Shown here in pieces: positions 28,656-58,861 of a stretch of 64,000 bases of DNA. Origin of the DNA: an uncultured Thermoplasmata archaeon (GTDB taxonomy: Archaea; Thermoplasmatota; Thermoplasmata; UBA10834); assembly GCA_964644565.1 (NCBI GenBank), contig CAZXWO010000005.1, forward strand, positions 3,320 to 67,319, given 5' to 3'. A model generated the notes under the pieces. The model was not told the DNA's origin and did not search any database. It saw only the letters and a program-made list of their open reading frames with translations. Position 1 is the stretch's first letter, and every line of letters starts with the position of its first letter. Made by a program: the position numbers and the translations under genes.

Positions 28656-28734
28656 TTGGCTCACTTGTGCTGACCTTGATGCTTCCCGCATATTAATTGT
28701 TGCTGAGAAACCGGATGTCTGTTGGACGGGGACG

Positions 28735-28809
28735 GTGGGCCCAACCGGATTTGAACCGGTGACCTCCCGGTTATCAGCCGGGTGCTCCAGCCAACCTAAG
28801 CTATGGGCC
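28735..28809 (-). tRNA. tRNA-Ile (anticodon GAT)
   Basis: Hand-folded cloverleaf: acceptor GGGCCCA/TGGGCCC, anticodon arm CCCGG-CTGATAA-CCGGG, T arm ACCGG-TTCAAAT-CCGGT. 75 nt, no encoded CCA. Confidence 0.9.
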
Positions 28810-28871
28810 CGTGTGGCTTGTGCGTGATACGGTGATTGGGATAAAATGGTTTCCATGATGGCAAATCTGGG

Positions 28872-35407: not shown

Positions 35408-35497
35408 GCTGAGGTAGCCAAGCCCGGATCACGGCGCCAGCCTTGAGAGCTGGTGGTACTACGTACCTCGGGAGTTCGAATCTCCCCCTCAGCGCCA
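35408..35497 (+). tRNA. tRNA-Ser (anticodon TGA), CCA encoded
   Basis: Acceptor GCTGAGG/CCTCAGC, anticodon arm CCAGC-CTTGAGA-GCTGG, long variable arm GGTAC-TAC-GTACC, T arm GGGAG-TTCGAAT-CTCCC, discriminator G followed by CCA. Confidence 0.9.
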
Positions 35498-50868: not shown

Positions 50869-50985
50869 GGGTCCTCGGCGCTATCGGTGTGGCGCATCAA
50901 TTGTCAGCGCTCGTATATCATGTTATCGCTCAGACTCCGCTTGACTCGGAGGCCCCAGAGGGACCTTACCGGAATGGAGGGGATG

Positions 50986-51070
50986 TGCGGGGGCTGAGAT
51001 TCGAACTCAGGGACTCCTTCGAGACCAGACCCTCAATCTGGCGCCGTTGACCGGGCTTGGCTACCCCCGC
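50986..51070 (-). tRNA. tRNA-Leu (anticodon GAG)
   Basis: Acceptor GCGGGGG/CCCCCGC, anticodon arm CCAGA-TTGAGGG-TCTGG, long variable arm, T arm CTGAG-TTCGAAT-CTCAG, discriminator A, no encoded CCA. Confidence 0.9.
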
Positions 51071-53793: not shown

Positions 53794-53840
53794 ACGATGG
53801 ACAGATCTGGGCACCGCTCCGCCCGACCATCCGACCAACA

Positions 53841-53848
53841 TATTAATA
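53841..53848 (+). promoter_or_regulatory. TATA box (TATTAATA) of the ilv operon
   Basis: AT-rich octamer whose centre is about 27 nt upstream of the ATG at 53872, a leaderless geometry. Confidence 0.5.
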
Positions 53849-53871
53849 CATCAAGGTACATTGCCAGCCCG

Positions 53872-53958
53872 ATGGACGCAGCCGCAGGTCGTATCCGGTT
53901 GGTTCTTCTCGTCGTGACCCTAGGGGTCCTTGTCGACCTGCGGACCGATGGCCTGTAA
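53872..53958 (+). promoter_or_regulatory. 28-codon Ile/Leu/Val-rich upstream ORF (candidate ilv leader peptide): MDAAAGRIRLVLLVVTLGVLVDLRTDGL
   Basis: The ATG sits at the predicted TSS. 13 of 28 codons are I/L/V. An 8-bp stem (53884-91 with 53934-41) lies inside it. CGACCT is repeated at 53934-39 and 53967-72. It ends 65 nt before the ilvB ATG. Confidence 0.4.
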
Positions 53959-54023
53959 CGGGCGCGCGACCTTTGGGGTGTTGTGATGTCCGTTCGGGCC
54001 GATGCAAGGAGTGTGAACAAACG

Positions 54024-55703
54024 ATGAAGGGCGCAAGGGCAGCCGTCGAGTTGCTGGAGAGGCAGAAGGTGGACGTGATGTTCGGCATACCCGGCGGCGT
54101 CCTCCTCCCCTTCTACGACGAGCTGGCGCAGTCCGACATAAGGCACATACTCGTCAGGCACGAGCAGTGCGCGGCGCACATGGCCGACGGGTACGCGCGC
54201 GTCTCGAAGAGGCCGGGGGTGTGCGTGGCGACGTCCGGACCGGGCGCCACCAACCTCGTGACTGGCGTGGCGACCGCGTTCATGGACTCCTCGCCCATCG
54301 TCGCCCTCACCGGGCAGGTGGCGACGGGGGTTCTCGGCAACGACGCGTTCCAGGAGGCGGACGCCTTCAGCCTCATGATGCCCATAACCAAGCACAACTT
54401 CAGGATCACGGACCCCAAGGACCTGGCCGAGACAGTCAACAAGGCGTTCATGATCGCCATGACCGGCCGGTACGGTCCGGTCCACATCGACCTGCCGACG
54501 GACATACTCACCTCCGACATCGCCGAGGAGGACCTGGCCAAGACAGTGAGGGTGCCAAAGCCCAAGAGGAACCTCTCGGGGCTCCTGGACGCCATAAAGC
54601 TCCTCGAGTCGGCGGAGAGGCCGACGATAATGGTCGGGGGTGGCGTCGCGTGGTCGAGGGCCGGCGGCGAGATAACCCGCCTCGCGGAGATACTCATGGC
54701 GCCCATAGTCACCACCCTCATGGCCAAGGGCTCCGTCCCAGACAACCACCCGTTGGTGCTCGGGGTGTGCGGGATGCACGGAAGGCAGGTGGCCAACTAC
54801 GCGCTCAACAACTGCGACGTCCTGCTCGCCATAGGCACCAGGTTCAGCGACAGGGTCACGGGGAAGCTCAGCGAGTTCGGCGCCAAGACGAAGGTCGTCC
54901 ACGTCGACATCGACTCGTCCGAGATCGGCAAGAACGTCAAGGGCAGGGTCGGCCTCGTCGGGGACGCCTGGACGGTGGTCAACGCCCTCATCGCGGGCCT
55001 GCAGAAGAGGAAGAAGAAGGACACCTGGATCGAGCGGATGAAGGCGCTCAACAAGGAGTGCAGCTGCGACCACGACCTCCGGTCCGACCCGATCAAGCCG
55101 CAGAAGGTAATACACGAGCTGTCGAAGAACCTCCCCGACGACGCCATAGTGACGACGGAGGTCGGGCAGAACCAGATGTGGGCGTCGCACTTCTACAAGT
55201 GCTACGGCAAGAGGATGTTCATCACATCGGGCGGCCTCGGCACGATGGGCTTCGGGTTCCCGGCGGCACTCGGGGCGAAGGTCGCAAGGCCCGGGAGCGT
55301 CGTGGTGGACATCGCGGGGGACGGGAGCCTGCAGATGGTGTCGCACGAGTTCGCCACCGCTGTCGAGAGCGGCATACCCGTCGTGGTGTGCCTCCTCGAC
55401 AACGGGTGGCTCGGCATGGTCAAGCAGTGGCAGAAGCACTTCTACGGGTCGAGGTACATGGCCACGAAGTTCAGCGGCACGCCCGACTTCGTGAAGCTCG
55501 CCGAGGCGTACGGCGCGGAGGCCATCAGGGTGGAGAGACACTCGGAGGTCGCCGAGGCCATAAAGAGGGCCTCCAAGTGCGAGGTGCCCATCCTCCTGGA
55601 CTTCATCGTCGACCCGGAGGAGGACGTCCTGCCGATGACGCCTCCGGGAAAGAGGACCTCGGAGTGCATAAAGGGCAGGTGCCAGTGGAAAGGGGGTGCG
55701 TGA
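54024..55703 (+). CDS. ilvB: Acetolactate synthase (acetohydroxyacid synthase) large subunit
   Basis: GARAAVELLERQKVDVMFGIPGG...TSGPGATN...GGLGTMGFGFPAALGA...GDGS.QM is the ThDP-enzyme pattern of IlvB. Start at 54024 within track ORF 53973..55703. Confidence 0.92.
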   Translation: MKGARAAVELLERQKVDVMFGIPGGVLLPFYDELAQSDIRHILVRHEQCAAHMADGYARVSKRPGVCVATSGPGATNLVTGVATAFMDSSPIVALTGQVATGVLGNDAFQEADAFSLMMPITKHNFRITDPKDLAETVNKAFMIAMTGRYGPVHIDLPTDILTSDIAEEDLAKTVRVPKPKRNLSGLLDAIKLLESAERPTIMVGGGVAWSRAGGEITRLAEILMAPIVTTLMAKGSVPDNHPLVLGVCGMHGRQVANYALNNCDVLLAIGTRFSDRVTGKLSEFGAKTKVVHVDIDSSEIGKNVKGRVGLVGDAWTVVNALIAGLQKRKKKDTWIERMKALNKECSCDHDLRSDPIKPQKVIHELSKNLPDDAIVTTEVGQNQMWASHFYKCYGKRMFITSGGLGTMGFGFPAALGAKVARPGSVVVDIAGDGSLQMVSHEFATAVESGIPVVVCLLDNGWLGMVKQWQKHFYGSRYMATKFSGTPDFVKLAEAYGAEAIRVERHSEVAEAIKRASKCEVPILLDFIVDPEEDVLPMTPPGKRTSECIKGRCQWKGGA

Positions 55704-56066
55704 ATGGAAGTGTTGATGTTGCTCGTCTACGACCAGCCTGGAGTCATGCAGCGGGTCATGGGCGAGTTCACCAGAAAGCGGATAAACGTCGAGACCATCG
55801 TGGTCGGCAAGTGCGAGATGCCTGAGAGGGCCAGGATCGTGCTCTCGGTGGAGAACAGGGAGAGGGCGCTGAACGTCATAGAGCATCTGAGGGCCCTCCA
55901 AGAGGTAATAGAGGCGGACATAGTCGCGCCCGACAGGCACGAGGCGTACGCCATCCTCCTCGGCAATAGCGGAGTCTGCAGGGTGACCGGGACGGTCGAG
56001 GAGGTGGAGGCTCTCATCAAGAAGAGCCAGCCACAGAGGTACATAGAGGCGATGAACGCGATATGA
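55704..56066 (+). CDS. ilvN: Acetolactate synthase small (regulatory) subunit, short form (single ACT domain)
   Basis: LMLLVYDQPGVMQRVMGEFTRKRINVETIVVG....ARIVLSV matches the IlvN/IlvH ACT domain. 120 aa. The ATG immediately follows the ilvB stop. Confidence 0.75.
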   Translation: MEVLMLLVYDQPGVMQRVMGEFTRKRINVETIVVGKCEMPERARIVLSVENRERALNVIEHLRALQEVIEADIVAPDRHEAYAILLGNSGVCRVTGTVEEVEALIKKSQPQRYIEAMNAI

Positions 56067-56073
56067 GACGGGA

Positions 56074-57063
56074 GTGGTGACAATGGCAAGGATGTACTAC
56101 AACAAGGACGCGAACCTGAACGTCCTCAAGGGCAAGAAGGTCGCGACCATAGGGTACGGAATACAGGGGAGGGCGCAGTCCCTCAACCTGCGGGACAGCG
56201 GTGTGGACGTGGTGGTCGGGCTGAAGTTCAGGGACGACTACTGGAAGCAGGCCAAGGCCGACAAGATGGAGATCCTGGACATACCCGAGGCCGTCAAGGC
56301 CGCGGACATAGTCATGATGCTCATCCCGGACGAGGTCCAGAAGATGGTGTACGACGCCGACGTCGCGCCGAACCTGAGGCCGGGCATGACGCTAGACTTC
56401 GCCCACGGGTTCAACATACACTTCAAGCTCATCGTCCCGCCGAAGGACGTCGACGTGATCATGGTGGCCCCGAAGGGACCGGGCGCCCTGGTGAGGGAAA
56501 CCTTCCTCGCCGGGAACGGCGTCCCCTCCCTGATAGCGGTCCACCAGGACCACTCAGGGAAGGCGAAGAAGACCGCCCTCGCGATGGCCAAGGGGCTGGG
56601 CGCGACCACGAGGGGCGTCATCGAGACGACCTTCAAGGAGGAGACCGAGACGGACCTGTTCGGCGAGCAGGCGGACCTCTGCGGCGGCGCGAGCGAGCTG
56701 GTCAAGAAGTCATTCGAGGTCCTGGTCGAGGCCGGCTACCAGCCGGAGATCGCCTACTTCGAGGTCCTGCACGAGCTGAAGCTCATCATCGACCTCGTGC
56801 AGAAGGGCGGGATCGAGGGGATGTGGGACAACGTGTCCAACACCGCCGAGTACGGCGGCAGGACCCGCGGTCCCAGAATCATCGACGACCGCGTGAAGGA
56901 GAGCATGAGGGTGATACTGAAGGACGTCCAGTCAGGCGCCTTCGCGAAGGAGTGGGTCCAGGAGTGCAGCTCGGGCCTGCCCACCCTGACGAAGCTCCGT
57001 AAGGAAGGCGAGAAGTCCCAGATCGAGGTCGTCGGCAGGTCCATCAGGAAGATGTTCAAGTAA
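56074..57063 (+). CDS. ilvC: Ketol-acid reductoisomerase
   Basis: VATIGYGIQGRAQSLNLRDSG..V.VGL...FAHGFNIHF...LFGEQA.LCGG...AEYG. Alternative ATG at 56083. Confidence 0.92.
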   Translation: MVTMARMYYNKDANLNVLKGKKVATIGYGIQGRAQSLNLRDSGVDVVVGLKFRDDYWKQAKADKMEILDIPEAVKAADIVMMLIPDEVQKMVYDADVAPNLRPGMTLDFAHGFNIHFKLIVPPKDVDVIMVAPKGPGALVRETFLAGNGVPSLIAVHQDHSGKAKKTALAMAKGLGATTRGVIETTFKEETETDLFGEQADLCGGASELVKKSFEVLVEAGYQPEIAYFEVLHELKLIIDLVQKGGIEGMWDNVSNTAEYGGRTRGPRIIDDRVKESMRVILKDVQSGAFAKEWVQECSSGLPTLTKLRKEGEKSQIEVVGRSIRKMFK

Positions 57064-57118: not shown

Positions 57119-57913
57119 GTGACGAACGTGGAACGCTGCATCCCGGAAGGCAGGAGGCTCGGCAGGTTCGAAGGACCTGACGGGGTCTTCATGGGGCTCC
57201 TCGACGGGGGCCGCGTCGAGGCGACCGTGTCCGGCGACCTTGCGGGCGTCATCTCCCAGGGCTGCGGGGGCACCGGGAGGACCTACCCCCTGGAGGAGCT
57301 GCGGGTCCTGGCCCCGGTGCACAGGCCGTCGAAGATCATATGCATAGGCCTCAACTACCGGAGCCACATCAGGGAGATGGGCTGGGAGACGCCCGAGGTC
57401 CCGATCATATTCACGAAGCCGTCCTCCGCCATAGTGGGCCCGGGGGAGGGCATAGTGCTTCCCGGCGCGTCGTCGAGGGTGGACTTCGAGGGGGAATCGG
57501 CCTTCGTCGTAGGGAGCAGGGCGAGGAGGGCTTCCGACGGGGAAGCGCACATATTCGGATACACCTGCATGAACGACGTCACTGCGAGGGACCTCCAGAA
57601 GACCGACCCTGACTGGACGCGGGCGAAGGGGTTCGACACCTTCGCACCCGTCGGCCCGTTCATATCCGGGCGGCCGCCCACGGTGGTCGAGACACGCCTC
57701 AACGGGAGGGTAGTCCAGAGCTCCCCCCTCTCGGACAGGGTGTTCGGCGACGCGGCGCTGGTCGAGTACATCTCGACCGTCATGACGCTCGAGCCGGGGG
57801 ACGTCGTCGCGACGGGCACCCCCTCGGGGATCGCCCCGATGAAGGCGGGCGACGTGGTCGAGGTAGAGCTCGACGGAGTTGGATGTCTTAAGAACCCGGT
57901 CGTCGCTAGGTGA
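57119..57913 (+). CDS. Fumarylacetoacetate hydrolase (FAH) family protein
   Basis: KIICIGLNYRSHIREMG...P.IFTKPSSA.VGPG..I..P.....VDFEGE.A.V.G...GYT..NDVTARD.Q......W...KGFDTF.P.GP...PGD...TGTP.G. Confidence 0.85.
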   Translation: MTNVERCIPEGRRLGRFEGPDGVFMGLLDGGRVEATVSGDLAGVISQGCGGTGRTYPLEELRVLAPVHRPSKIICIGLNYRSHIREMGWETPEVPIIFTKPSSAIVGPGEGIVLPGASSRVDFEGESAFVVGSRARRASDGEAHIFGYTCMNDVTARDLQKTDPDWTRAKGFDTFAPVGPFISGRPPTVVETRLNGRVVQSSPLSDRVFGDAALVEYISTVMTLEPGDVVATGTPSGIAPMKAGDVVEVELDGVGCLKNPVVAR

Positions 57914-57937: not shown

Positions 57938-58861
57938 ATGGCAATAGAGCCGAGCGAGAAGATCTGGAAGAACGGGCAGTTGATACCGTGGAAGGACGCG
58001 ACAGTGCACGTGCTCACGCACGGGCTGCACTACGGGACCGGGGCATTCGAGGGCATAAGGTGCTACAGCACCGAGAAGGGCCCTGCGGTCTTCAGGCTCA
58101 GGGACCACATCGCAAGGCTCCACACGTCGGCCAAGGCCATCCAGATGAGGATCCCGTACACGGTCGACCAGCTCTGCGAGGCGACCAAGGAGACCATCAG
58201 GGTCAACAAGCTCGGGGCCTGCTACATACGCCCCATCGCGTTCTTCGGCGTCCAGGGCATAGGCGTGAACCCCATCGGCTACCCCGTGGACACCTTCGTG
58301 ATCGCGTTCCCGATGGGTGCGTACCTCGGCGAGGAGGGGATGAAGAAGGGCATACGGGTCCACACCTCCTCCTGGCACAGGATACCGGTGGGCTCCGCGC
58401 CGGCGACGGCCAAGATCTGCGGCGACTACCTCAACAGCGCCCTCGCGGTGATGGAGGCGAAGATGAACGGGTTCGAGGAGACCATAATGCTCAACGACCT
58501 CCACATGGTGGCCGAGGGCTCCGGCGAGAACATATTCATGGTCAAGGACGGCAGGGTGCTGACCCCGCCGACGAACGCGGGCATCCTCCCGGGGATAACC
58601 AGGGAGTCGGTGATGACGGTGGCGAGGGACATGGGGTACGAGGTCGTCGAGCAGAACTTCTCGAGGGGCGAGCTCTTCCTGGCGGACGAGCTGTTCTTCA
58701 CGGGCACGGCCGCCGAGGTCACCCCCATAAGGGAGGTCGACAGGCGCCAGGTCGGCGACGGCGTGCCGGGCCCGGTGACCCTATCCATCCAGAAGACCTA
58801 CCTGGAGGCCGTCAGGGGTAAGCTGGACAGGTACCGCACCTGGCTGGACCCGGTCGGGTGA
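57938..58861 (+). CDS. ilvE: Branched-chain amino acid aminotransferase
   Basis: IWKNGQLIPWKDATVHVLTHGLHYGTGAFEGIR.Y...YIRP....G...LGV...GITR.SV...A...G..V.E.....EL..ADE.FFTGTAAEV.P. Confidence 0.92.
   Translation: MAIEPSEKIWKNGQLIPWKDATVHVLTHGLHYGTGAFEGIRCYSTEKGPAVFRLRDHIARLHTSAKAIQMRIPYTVDQLCEATKETIRVNKLGACYIRPIAFFGVQGIGVNPIGYPVDTFVIAFPMGAYLGEEGMKKGIRVHTSSWHRIPVGSAPATAKICGDYLNSALAVMEAKMNGFEETIMLNDLHMVAEGSGENIFMVKDGRVLTPPTNAGILPGITRESVMTVARDMGYEVVEQNFSRGELFLADELFFTGTAAEVTPIREVDRRQVGDGVPGPVTLSIQKTYLEAVRGKLDRYRTWLDPVG

Follow-up and report, generated by a model that had tools for sequence, protein, structure and literature searches.

The 64,000-nucleotide (nt) stretch of DNA analysed here, which we call the window and whose positions are used throughout, comes from an uncultured Thermoplasmata archaeon of the lineage UBA10834 (assembly GCA_964644565.1, contig CAZXWO010000005.1, positions 3,320 to 67,319 of the forward strand). 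Its + strand carries an ilv operon that begins with ilvB, the gene for the acetolactate synthase large subunit (54024–55703; TIGR00118, 734.8 bits at a cut-off of 538). This is followed by an ilvN-like small-subunit gene with an ACT domain (55704–56066; Pfam ACT_AHAS_ss, 61 bits at a cut-off of 27; TIGR00119 stays under its cut-off), by ilvC for ketol-acid reductoisomerase (56074–57063; NF004017, 506 bits at a cut-off of 336), by a gene of the fumarylacetoacetate hydrolase (FAA-hydrolase) family that apparently lies within the operon (57119–57913, between ilvC and ilvE), and by ilvE for branched-chain amino-acid transaminase (57938–58861; NF005146, 429 bits at a cut-off of 279). The order of a threonine-synthase-like gene, about 230 nt, ilvB, ilvN and ilvC is kept in relatives. 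Upstream of ilvB, on the same strand, lies the subject of this study, a short open reading frame (ORF) of 28 codons plus TAA, MDAAAGRIRLVLLVVTLGVLVDLRTDGL (53872–53958), which is not called as a gene in any of the ten contigs that were fetched. Its stop codon occupies 53956–53958, and the ATG of ilvB (54024) follows 65 nt further on. Isoleucine, leucine and valine (I/L/V) account for 13 of its 28 residues (I1, L7, V5). An initial annotation of this DNA had likened the ORF to a bacterial leader peptide, and all of its coordinates (the TATA box TATTAATA at 53841–53848, the ATG, the stop codon and the distance to ilvB) as well as its residue count were confirmed. Based on comparative sequence analysis, which draws on uncultured genomes throughout, we consider it probable that the ORF is real and translated, and that it serves as a probably leaderless sensor of charged Ile, Leu and Val transfer RNA (tRNA) for the ilvB-ilvN-ilvC-(FAA hydrolase)-ilvE operon.

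Leaders for comparison were collected by an IlvB scan of genome contigs and metagenome contigs, together with ten exact-protein look-ups; more than 120 relatives of IlvB exist at 82–95% identity. They comprise 20 leaders from Thermoplasmata-type metagenome-assembled genomes (MAGs) with an IlvB identity of 73–95% (group A, the close relatives) and six leaders from Methanomassiliicoccales with an IlvB identity of 56–60% (group B). The initial annotation had proposed to look for a conserved I/L/V-rich ORF in orthologous leaders, and all 20 close relatives indeed retain the ORF, its frame and the position of its stop codon. In 18 of them it has 28 codons; the only indels within it are two, of +3 and +6 nt, and the spacer 3′ of the stop codon has accumulated numerous indels whose lengths are not divisible by three. 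The stop codon changes its identity in place (TAA in nine, TGA in nine and TAG in two leaders), Val19 is encoded by GTC, GTG, GTT or GTA, Ala5 by GCA, GCG or GCT, Gly6 also shows synonymous variation, and position 21 of the peptide can be V, I or L. Because the stop codon switches in place, indels keep the frame, changes are synonymous or interchange V, I and L, and the start codon lies at a constant spacing from the TATA motif (described below), the ORF appears to be decoded. Its most conserved block is CTAGGGGTCCTTGTCGACCTGCGG (53920–53943; codons 17–24, LGVLVDLR), a sequence that occurs once in the window. Within this block, Leu23 is CTG in 20/20 close relatives, Arg24 is CGG in 18 and CGT in two, and Asp22 is GAC in 18/20. 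A longer in-frame ORF starting at 53797 was rejected, as it begins 5′ of the TATA box in poorly conserved sequence.

The number of I/L/V codons per leader ORF is 11–14 in 20/20 close relatives. In the window they form a rich run over codons 8–23, IRLVLLVVTLGVLVDL (53893–53940), which contains the rare codons TTG, GTT, CTT, CTA and CTT; five of the 13 I/L/V codons of the ORF are rare, with a usage of 2–3% each (CTT, TTG, GTT, CTA). Leu17 is encoded by CTA in 19/20 relatives, a codon that makes up 2% of the Leu codons in window genes. The rare codons, along with a low GC content at third codon positions (GC3), may be due to weak selection on the choice of codons, or slow decoding may be their purpose, as in bacterial leu leaders and the ilv leader of Corynebacterium glutamicum.

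More distant archaea share the run and little else. Methanomassiliicoccales leader ORFs have 22–26 codons with unrelated N-termini and carry the I/L/V run at their end (for example ..SLLGVVVVLIR, ..SVVGIIIR, ..VDVVLLVL and ..IILVILTLVL, each directly before the stop codon). An ORF that ends 15–100 nt 5′ of ilvB and has at least eight I/L/V in its last ~10 codons was present at 14/151 ilvB loci vs 2/2852 random windows of the same loci. A mechanical survey of all loci turned up more such leaders: Archaeoglobi-like loci have ORFs ending in ..LLLPVVLVVIC and ..LPLPVAIIVVH, and loci whose IlvB is nearest to Bathyarchaeia (61–68% identity), which are probably Bathyarchaeia-like, have ORFs ending in ..PIVLLLVLVVILQ, ..SLLVLLVIILL and ..LAIALLVVLLA. 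Since N-termini are unrelated between lineages and the I/L/V run is shared, I/L/V richness is, by sequence comparison, a conserved property across lineages. This also bears out the expectation of the initial annotation that the codon run would be conserved above the rest of the peptide.

The survey brought up further arrangements at ilvB loci. ORFs ending in I/L/V runs were seen on seven metagenome contigs that are putatively Bathyarchaeia-like (L139, L120, L156, L104, L091, L143 and L148); a hairpin lies within a few nt of the stop codon in the first six, and the leader ORF of L139 is apparently Shine-Dalgarno-led, not leaderless. Two Archaeoglobi-like loci (L124 and L051) have two tandem Shine-Dalgarno-ATG modules in the last ~45 nt 5′ of ilvB. 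A mini-ORF of six codons, MKRWVL, starts from the first module, and its TGA overlaps the ilvB ATG (ATGA), a layout typical of translational coupling; the arrangement separates the I/L/V leader ORF from ilvB. In a deltaproteobacterial MAG (L077), an I/L/V-rich leader ORF, MNPKAAIFNLILISLIIVGLLDDD..., a GC-rich hairpin and a run of nine T are found ~200 nt 5′ of ilvB. This locus has the classical form of a bacterial attenuator and serves as a positive control of the survey; the archaeal leaders, by contrast, have no U-run.

These comparisons bear on two readings of the ORF that involve no sensing. The initial annotation had itself cautioned that it could be a chance ORF, given that GC-rich DNA holds many Leu and Val codons, and it fits such a reading that the whole leader folds no better than shuffled sequences (z = −1.45). 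The caveat is countered by the conservation across relatives, by the enrichment at ilvB loci, and by the window ORF alone: the probability of at least 13 I/L/V in 27 codons is P = 0.0035 against the window proteome (22.9% I/L/V) and P = 8e-5 against the local base composition. Conservation effectively refutes a chance origin, which we regard as highly improbable. The second reading is a small hydrophobic peptide with an independent function, for instance in the membrane or as the partner of an enzyme, that shares nothing but its transcript with ilvB. Purifying selection on the leader ORF would be expected of such a peptide, as would the VL(V/I/L)DLR motif, which is kept at the amino-acid level even through the synonymous change from CGG to CGT. 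However, the unbroken hydrophobic stretch spans just 10–12 residues and consists almost entirely of I, L and V, different lineages have unrelated N-termini and share I/L/V richness alone, and the ORF is specific to the sequence 5′ of ilvB. Moreover, no Pfam or NCBIfam family matched: among seven leader peptides there was no meaningful hit (the CapE family, at E = 0.13, is far under its cut-off), and in a collection of 5.8 billion proteins the leader peptide matches two unnamed ORFs and no others. We therefore hold a functional peptide to be improbable.

Sequence 5′ of the TATA box is poorly conserved in all relatives, and the leader can be aligned from the TATA box onward. The box forms part of an archaeal promoter at 53835–53848 (+ strand); TTAATA and its flanks were found to be invariant or nearly so, first in six and then in 20 relatives, and a conserved CCAAC/GAT stretch 5′ of the box may be a candidate transcription factor B recognition element. 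The distance from the TATA motif to the start of the leader ORF is 27–30 nt in the 20 related Thermoplasmata leaders. Measured from the first T of the motif, it is 27–32 nt in 26/26 leaders of Thermoplasmata and Methanomassiliicoccales, the latter, more distant group also swapping ATG and GTG as start codon. This constant spacing predicts transcription to start at 53870–53872 with a 5′ untranslated region of 0–2 nt, which fits the position of about 53870 proposed in the initial annotation. As the start codon lies at a constant distance from the TATA motif, we consider the leader ORF to be probably leaderless. In front of ilvB, a Shine-Dalgarno region, AAGGAGTG (54006–54013, + strand), contains GGAG at 54008–54011, and GGAGTGTG within it is almost invariant among relatives.

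The main covarying structure of the leader, which is absent from the initial annotation, is a hairpin across the stop codon that we term P1 (53950–54000, + strand; GGCCUG..ACGGGCGC.. / ..GUCCGU..CGGGCC), identified by a consensus fold and by covariation. Its 5′ arm includes the stop codon of the leader ORF and the two codons before it, and the segment around it has a minimum free energy of −31.6 kcal/mol (z = −3.3). On 11 sequences, 99% of the cells are paired and five pairs have changed on both sides, and sliding the 3′ partner by 1–3 columns as a control drops the pairing to 30–44%. On 20 sequences, 94.5% are paired, with four pairs changed on both sides. Relative to the stop codon, the 5′ base of this hairpin is located at −8 to +4, both in groups A and B and in those Bathyarchaeia-like lineages that have a strong post-stop hairpin; Archaeoglobi-like leaders have no strong post-stop hairpin and a spacer of just 24–40 nt. 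Many of the pairs are sense-strand G·U pairs, which indicates an RNA structure and not a DNA palindrome. An operator function at the DNA level is accordingly unlikely, also in view of the variable spacing of the arms, and inspection by eye gave no fit to a kink-turn or a bulge-helix-bulge in P1. The Shine-Dalgarno sequence of ilvB starts 8–25 nt 3′ of the P1 3′ base. Because the stop codon sits at the 5′ base and the Shine-Dalgarno sequence just past the 3′ base, we considered a hand-over of ribosomes across P1 to the ilvB ribosome-binding site, by termination-reinitiation or in a shunt-like manner. This candidate was rejected, as regulation would have the right sign only under extra assumptions, and a free Shine-Dalgarno sequence belongs to ilvB itself.

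A second pairing, P0, which the consensus fold likewise contains, joins the 5′ end of the ORF to its 3′ third. In the window, CCGCAGGTCG (53882–53891, + strand; codons 4–7) forms 10 base pairs (bp) with CGACCTGCGG (53934–53943, + strand; codons 21–24). The helix begins 10 nt past the A of the ATG, and G3 and G4 of the ATGG start could add weak outer pairs. The initial annotation had pointed out that GCAGGTCG (53884–53891) is complementary to CGACCTGC (53934–53941). This 8-bp helix is real and extends to the 10 bp given above, and it proved to be merely the invariant core of a larger pairing: CCGC(N)GG with CCUGCGG is fixed in 18–20 of the 20 close relatives, and in most of them P0 is longer, with the first 24 nt of the ORF (including the UG of the AUG) pairing with codons 19–27. 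Codon 4 is NCC and encodes A, T, S or P, and this invariance of CC under a changing amino acid indicates a constraint on the RNA and not on the peptide. The duplex between the first 24 and the last 36 nt of the window ORF has a predicted energy of −23.4 kcal/mol vs −17.5 kcal/mol for shuffles (p = 0.05). Duplex energies in relatives range from −16 to −30 kcal/mol vs −13 to −20 kcal/mol for shuffles, and in a subgroup of 84% identity, nt 2–24 pair with codons 19–27 at −24 to −30 kcal/mol vs approximately −13 to −18 kcal/mol. The P0 duplex is stronger than shuffles at p < 0.05 in 9/20 leaders of group A, in 4/6 of Methanomassiliicoccales and in 3/5 Archaeoglobi-like leaders. As one example of P0, AUGGCUGCUGG pairs with CCAGUAGCCAU in L070. 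By the same comparison of duplexes with shuffles, P0-type pairing was found in 0/6 further, Bathyarchaeia-like lineages (L139, L120, L156, L104, L091 and L143). Columns 4/87 and 6/85 of P0 covary, and a change at column 11/81 is compensated in L164 and uncompensated in L168.

With two helices in the leader, P0 and P1 might together constitute a structured cis-regulatory RNA that binds a protein or a metabolite, the ORF being incidental. The covariation of P1 is in line with this, as are synonymous sites that are held fixed (CTA, CTG, CGG and the CC of codon 4) and the failure to find the actuator of a ribosome sensor in the pairing tests described below. On the other hand, the switching of the stop codon in place, the restriction of indels to in-frame ones, the synonymous variation at Val19, Ala5 and Gly6 and the interchange of V, I and L imply decoding, and other lineages with unrelated sequence share just a short ORF with a terminal I/L/V run next to ilvB. 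Furthermore, Rfam 15 offered no family: in the window only tRNAs reach the gathering score (the best match in the leader has E = 1.3), and none of 15 related loci gave a match. On balance, we judge a binding RNA of this kind to be quite unlikely.

How, then, could the leader act? Under the explanation that we favour, a translated sensor ORF, a ribosome would load on the 5′-terminal AUG mainly during RNA synthesis, before the 3′ strand of P0 exists. With ample charged tRNA, it would reach the stop codon, briefly melt P1 and depart, upon which P0 would close over or near the start region and the leader would rest as P0 plus P1. With scarce I/L/V-tRNA, the ribosome would stall on the run, including the near-invariant rare CUA codon (19/20). 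A ribosome stalled on most positions of the run would leave P1 intact and hold P0 open, so that the leader would act as a latch set by ribosome occupancy. The step from an open leader to higher ilvB expression is not readable from the sequence.

We searched for this step among the outputs of known attenuators. A consensus scan detected no intrinsic terminator, and in all 20 relatives the sequence after P1 lacks a T-run. The initial annotation had proposed a switch in which a second CGACCT (53967–53972), followed by TTT, offers an alternative partner to the 3′ strand. The copy is present, and both it and the TTT, which lies in the loop of P1, are conserved in the closest subgroup alone; with neither this partner and its TTT conserved nor a terminator at hand, the alternative-structure switch is unsupported. 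When the 5′ arm of P1 was masked, as by a ribosome on the stop codon, constrained consensus folding gave no conserved partner for the 3′ arm, and duplexes of this arm with downstream sequence were not above shuffles in 22 leaders (all p > 0.19). A classical 3:4 helix was also considered. By eye, the arm seemed complementary to ilvB codons 7–11 in one subgroup and to the Shine-Dalgarno region in another; both failed the shuffle test.

A different output would come from a translational attenuator like that of the mycobacterial cysteine leaders: the pyrimidine-rich I/L/V codons would pair with the Shine-Dalgarno and start region of ilvB, P1 would clamp both, and stalling of a ribosome would make the ribosome-binding site accessible. 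This design has an experimental precedent (10.1101/834739), and several predictions are compatible with it. The predicted ensemble pairs approximately codons 9–27 with the window of the ribosome-binding site in 8/11 close relatives. In several relatives, opening the site costs 1.2–3.2 kcal/mol with a ribosome on the run vs 3.6–7.5 kcal/mol with none and 4–14 kcal/mol with a ribosome on the stop codon. With the 5′ arm of P1 masked, the site is ~2 kcal/mol harder to open in 9/11, the downstream RNA being folded alone. For the closest relatives, the site is predicted to be 2–3 kcal/mol easier to open with a ribosome on the run, a difference that we deemed inconclusive. However, the ORF pairs with the ribosome-binding site of ilvB no better than its dinucleotide shuffles do. 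The pairing is significantly below shuffles in the sister group, and it is mostly weaker than shuffles in that group and in Archaeoglobi-like leaders, where the fraction of shuffles that pair at least as well is 0.90–1.00 in 8/11. Synonymous recoding of the ORF shows a weak trend toward pairing with the ribosome-binding site (mean fraction 0.32), the P0 loop forms a significant duplex with the site (p < 0.05) in 1/20 leaders (median p 0.37), and the pairing between codons and the Shine-Dalgarno sequence is without covariation support. We consider such an attenuator unlikely, if slightly less so than the binding RNA discussed above. Separately, the consensus fold of 11 relatives pairs the Shine-Dalgarno region of ilvB (54006–54011) with GUCCUCCU (approximately 54096–54103), which encodes a conserved VLLP motif ~75–80 nt into ilvB; this may be a chance complementarity of a Shine-Dalgarno-like with an anti-Shine-Dalgarno-like sequence.

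The absence of a terminator and T-run, the lack of a conserved or significant partner for the 3′ arm of P1, and the ORF-to-site pairing that neither exceeds shuffles nor extends beyond a trend on recoding all weigh against the reading as a sensor ORF, and further points have to be set beside them. Codon usage of the leader ORF is not gene-like (GC3 ~68% vs roughly 0.9 in the clear genes of the window), and covariation in P0 is limited, with one compensated and one uncompensated change in the core. The source genomes are related MAGs, so sequence counts exceed the number of independent events. The transcription start, translation and any responsiveness to branched-chain amino acids are predictions from sequence. 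Finally, in Streptomyces coelicolor, regulation by a comparable ilvB leader was unaffected when its I/L/V codons were mutated (cited in PMC1262725).

Because the ilvB ribosome-binding site seems to be kept free, we tentatively favour an output in which the sensor ORF controls the synthesis or the survival of the RNA, and not the ilvB ribosome-binding site, although the chances of this output being correct are clearly less than even. I/L/V codons have U at their second position, and the sensor run is therefore intrinsically U-rich. A stalled ribosome would mask this U-rich codon tract or act as a roadblock, and either would counter factor-dependent premature termination of the aCPSF1/FttA type or 5′-to-3′ decay. 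Promoter-proximal elongation complexes of one archaeon recruit aCPSF1 without U-stretches (PMC8448881). A broader proposal, which is more speculative still, is that several archaeal lineages (Thermoplasmata/Methanomassiliicoccales, Archaeoglobi-like and probably Bathyarchaeia-like) use ribosome stalling on I/L/V leader ORFs for ilvB. In leaderless members, a latch between the 5′ end and the 3′ third would close the start codon unless occupied by a ribosome, and the run would double as an entry site of the aCPSF1/FttA or RNase J type that is masked by the stalled ribosome.

Comparison with known systems shows where the element agrees and where it departs. The enterobacterial ilvGMEDA, ilvBN and leu attenuators combine Shine-Dalgarno-led leader ORFs with alternative 1:2, 2:3 and 3:4 helices and a U-tract terminator. 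The archaeal leader resembles them in its multivalent runs of I/L/V codons with rare Leu codons, and in the location of the stop codon, where a ribosome that terminates would lie over the 5′ half of the hairpin that follows. Of the hallmarks of trp/leu/ilv-type attenuation, a leader ORF rich in codons of the end product is present (13/28), whereas neither an intrinsic terminator nor mutually exclusive helices were found here, and the leader ORF is predicted to be leaderless. A close counterpart is ilvBNC of C. glutamicum, which has a leaderless leader peptide, IlvL, and a three-hairpin attenuator (Morbach 2000, as cited in PMC11857589). Both have the operon type ilvB-ilvN-ilvC, a short leader ORF that is rich in I/L/V and needs no ribosome-binding site for its translation (predicted so in our case) and conserved rare control codons, CUU and GUA there and CUA and CUU here. 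According to PMC11857589, the first hairpin of C. glutamicum covers the translation start, so that initiation takes place during RNA synthesis; P0 corresponds to this hairpin over a leaderless start (H1, the anti-antiterminator). The differences concern the output: C. glutamicum has a terminator hairpin with a U-run and an overlapping antiterminator, and here neither a U-run nor an alternative helix was found. Moreover, the terminator is the most conserved part there, while here the most conserved structure is P1, with no U-run after it and with the stop codon inside a stable hairpin, in an archaeal host whose promoter is of the TATA type and whose machinery for termination differs.

Mycobacterial leaderless short ORFs with polycysteine tracts, the 'Cys ribulon', regulate cysteine operons (10.1101/834739) and provide a second parallel. 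In both cases, a leaderless sensory short ORF (predicted to be so here) is the first cistron and has its sensor codons gathered toward its 3′ end, an intrinsic terminator is lacking, and the ORFs of independent operons share codon bias alone. The mycobacterial Cys codons, however, pair with the downstream Shine-Dalgarno sequence, as established with compensatory mutants, whereas pairing here is not above shuffles and is absent in the sister group. Candidate actinobacterial ilvB leaders, likewise predicted by comparison, are I/L/V-rich short ORFs 5′ of ilvB as well, and they differ in overlapping terminator hairpins with poly-U runs (PMC1262725). In sum, the element shares its sensor design with known systems and fails their output features, be it a U-run terminator or codon-to-Shine-Dalgarno pairing.

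For the sake of completeness, we list observations outside the leader. At the Rfam gathering threshold, the window contains a tRNA-Ile(GAT) (28734–28810) and a tRNA-Ser(TGA) (35408–35497) and no other tRNAs; ARAGORN additionally places a tRNA-Leu(GAG) at 50985–51070 on the − strand, which is not among the Rfam calls. A different conserved motif was seen ~100–170 nt 5′ of ilvB at labelled Bathyarchaeia loci and similar unlabelled ones (L013, L019, L029, L030, L031, L035, L047, L075, L093, L100 and L102). It has a short form, (A/G)TGAGGGAT(C/A)G...CCTC, and a long form, GTGAGGGATAT(A/C)CGGGTACGGAGG..CCTCC. This motif lacks I/L/V richness and reaches the gathering score of no Rfam family; it may constitute a distinct ilvB leader element that is so far undescribed.

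For bacteria, leader-peptide attenuation belongs to textbook knowledge. Our full-text literature search returned no paper in which an amino-acid operon of an archaeon is controlled by a leader peptide, and ribosome-profiling papers on Haloferax and Methanosarcina mention upstream ORFs in general terms only. Ribosome-based sensing as known from bacteria is not established in archaea, and the leader element is not described in the literature searched. The S. coelicolor precedent calls for caution, as I/L/V-rich ilvB leaders need not work as expected. If the proposed reading is correct, it would represent leader-peptide attenuation with neither an intrinsic terminator nor an anti-Shine-Dalgarno sequence, and its output may differ from those of bacterial mechanisms. 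The leader would offer a concrete, mutable element of ~150 nt for studying feedback of translation on transcription or RNA fate in archaea, and it suggests that archaeal leaders may hold short ORFs biased to other amino acids. Archaea, too, would then read their amino-acid supply through the ribosome.

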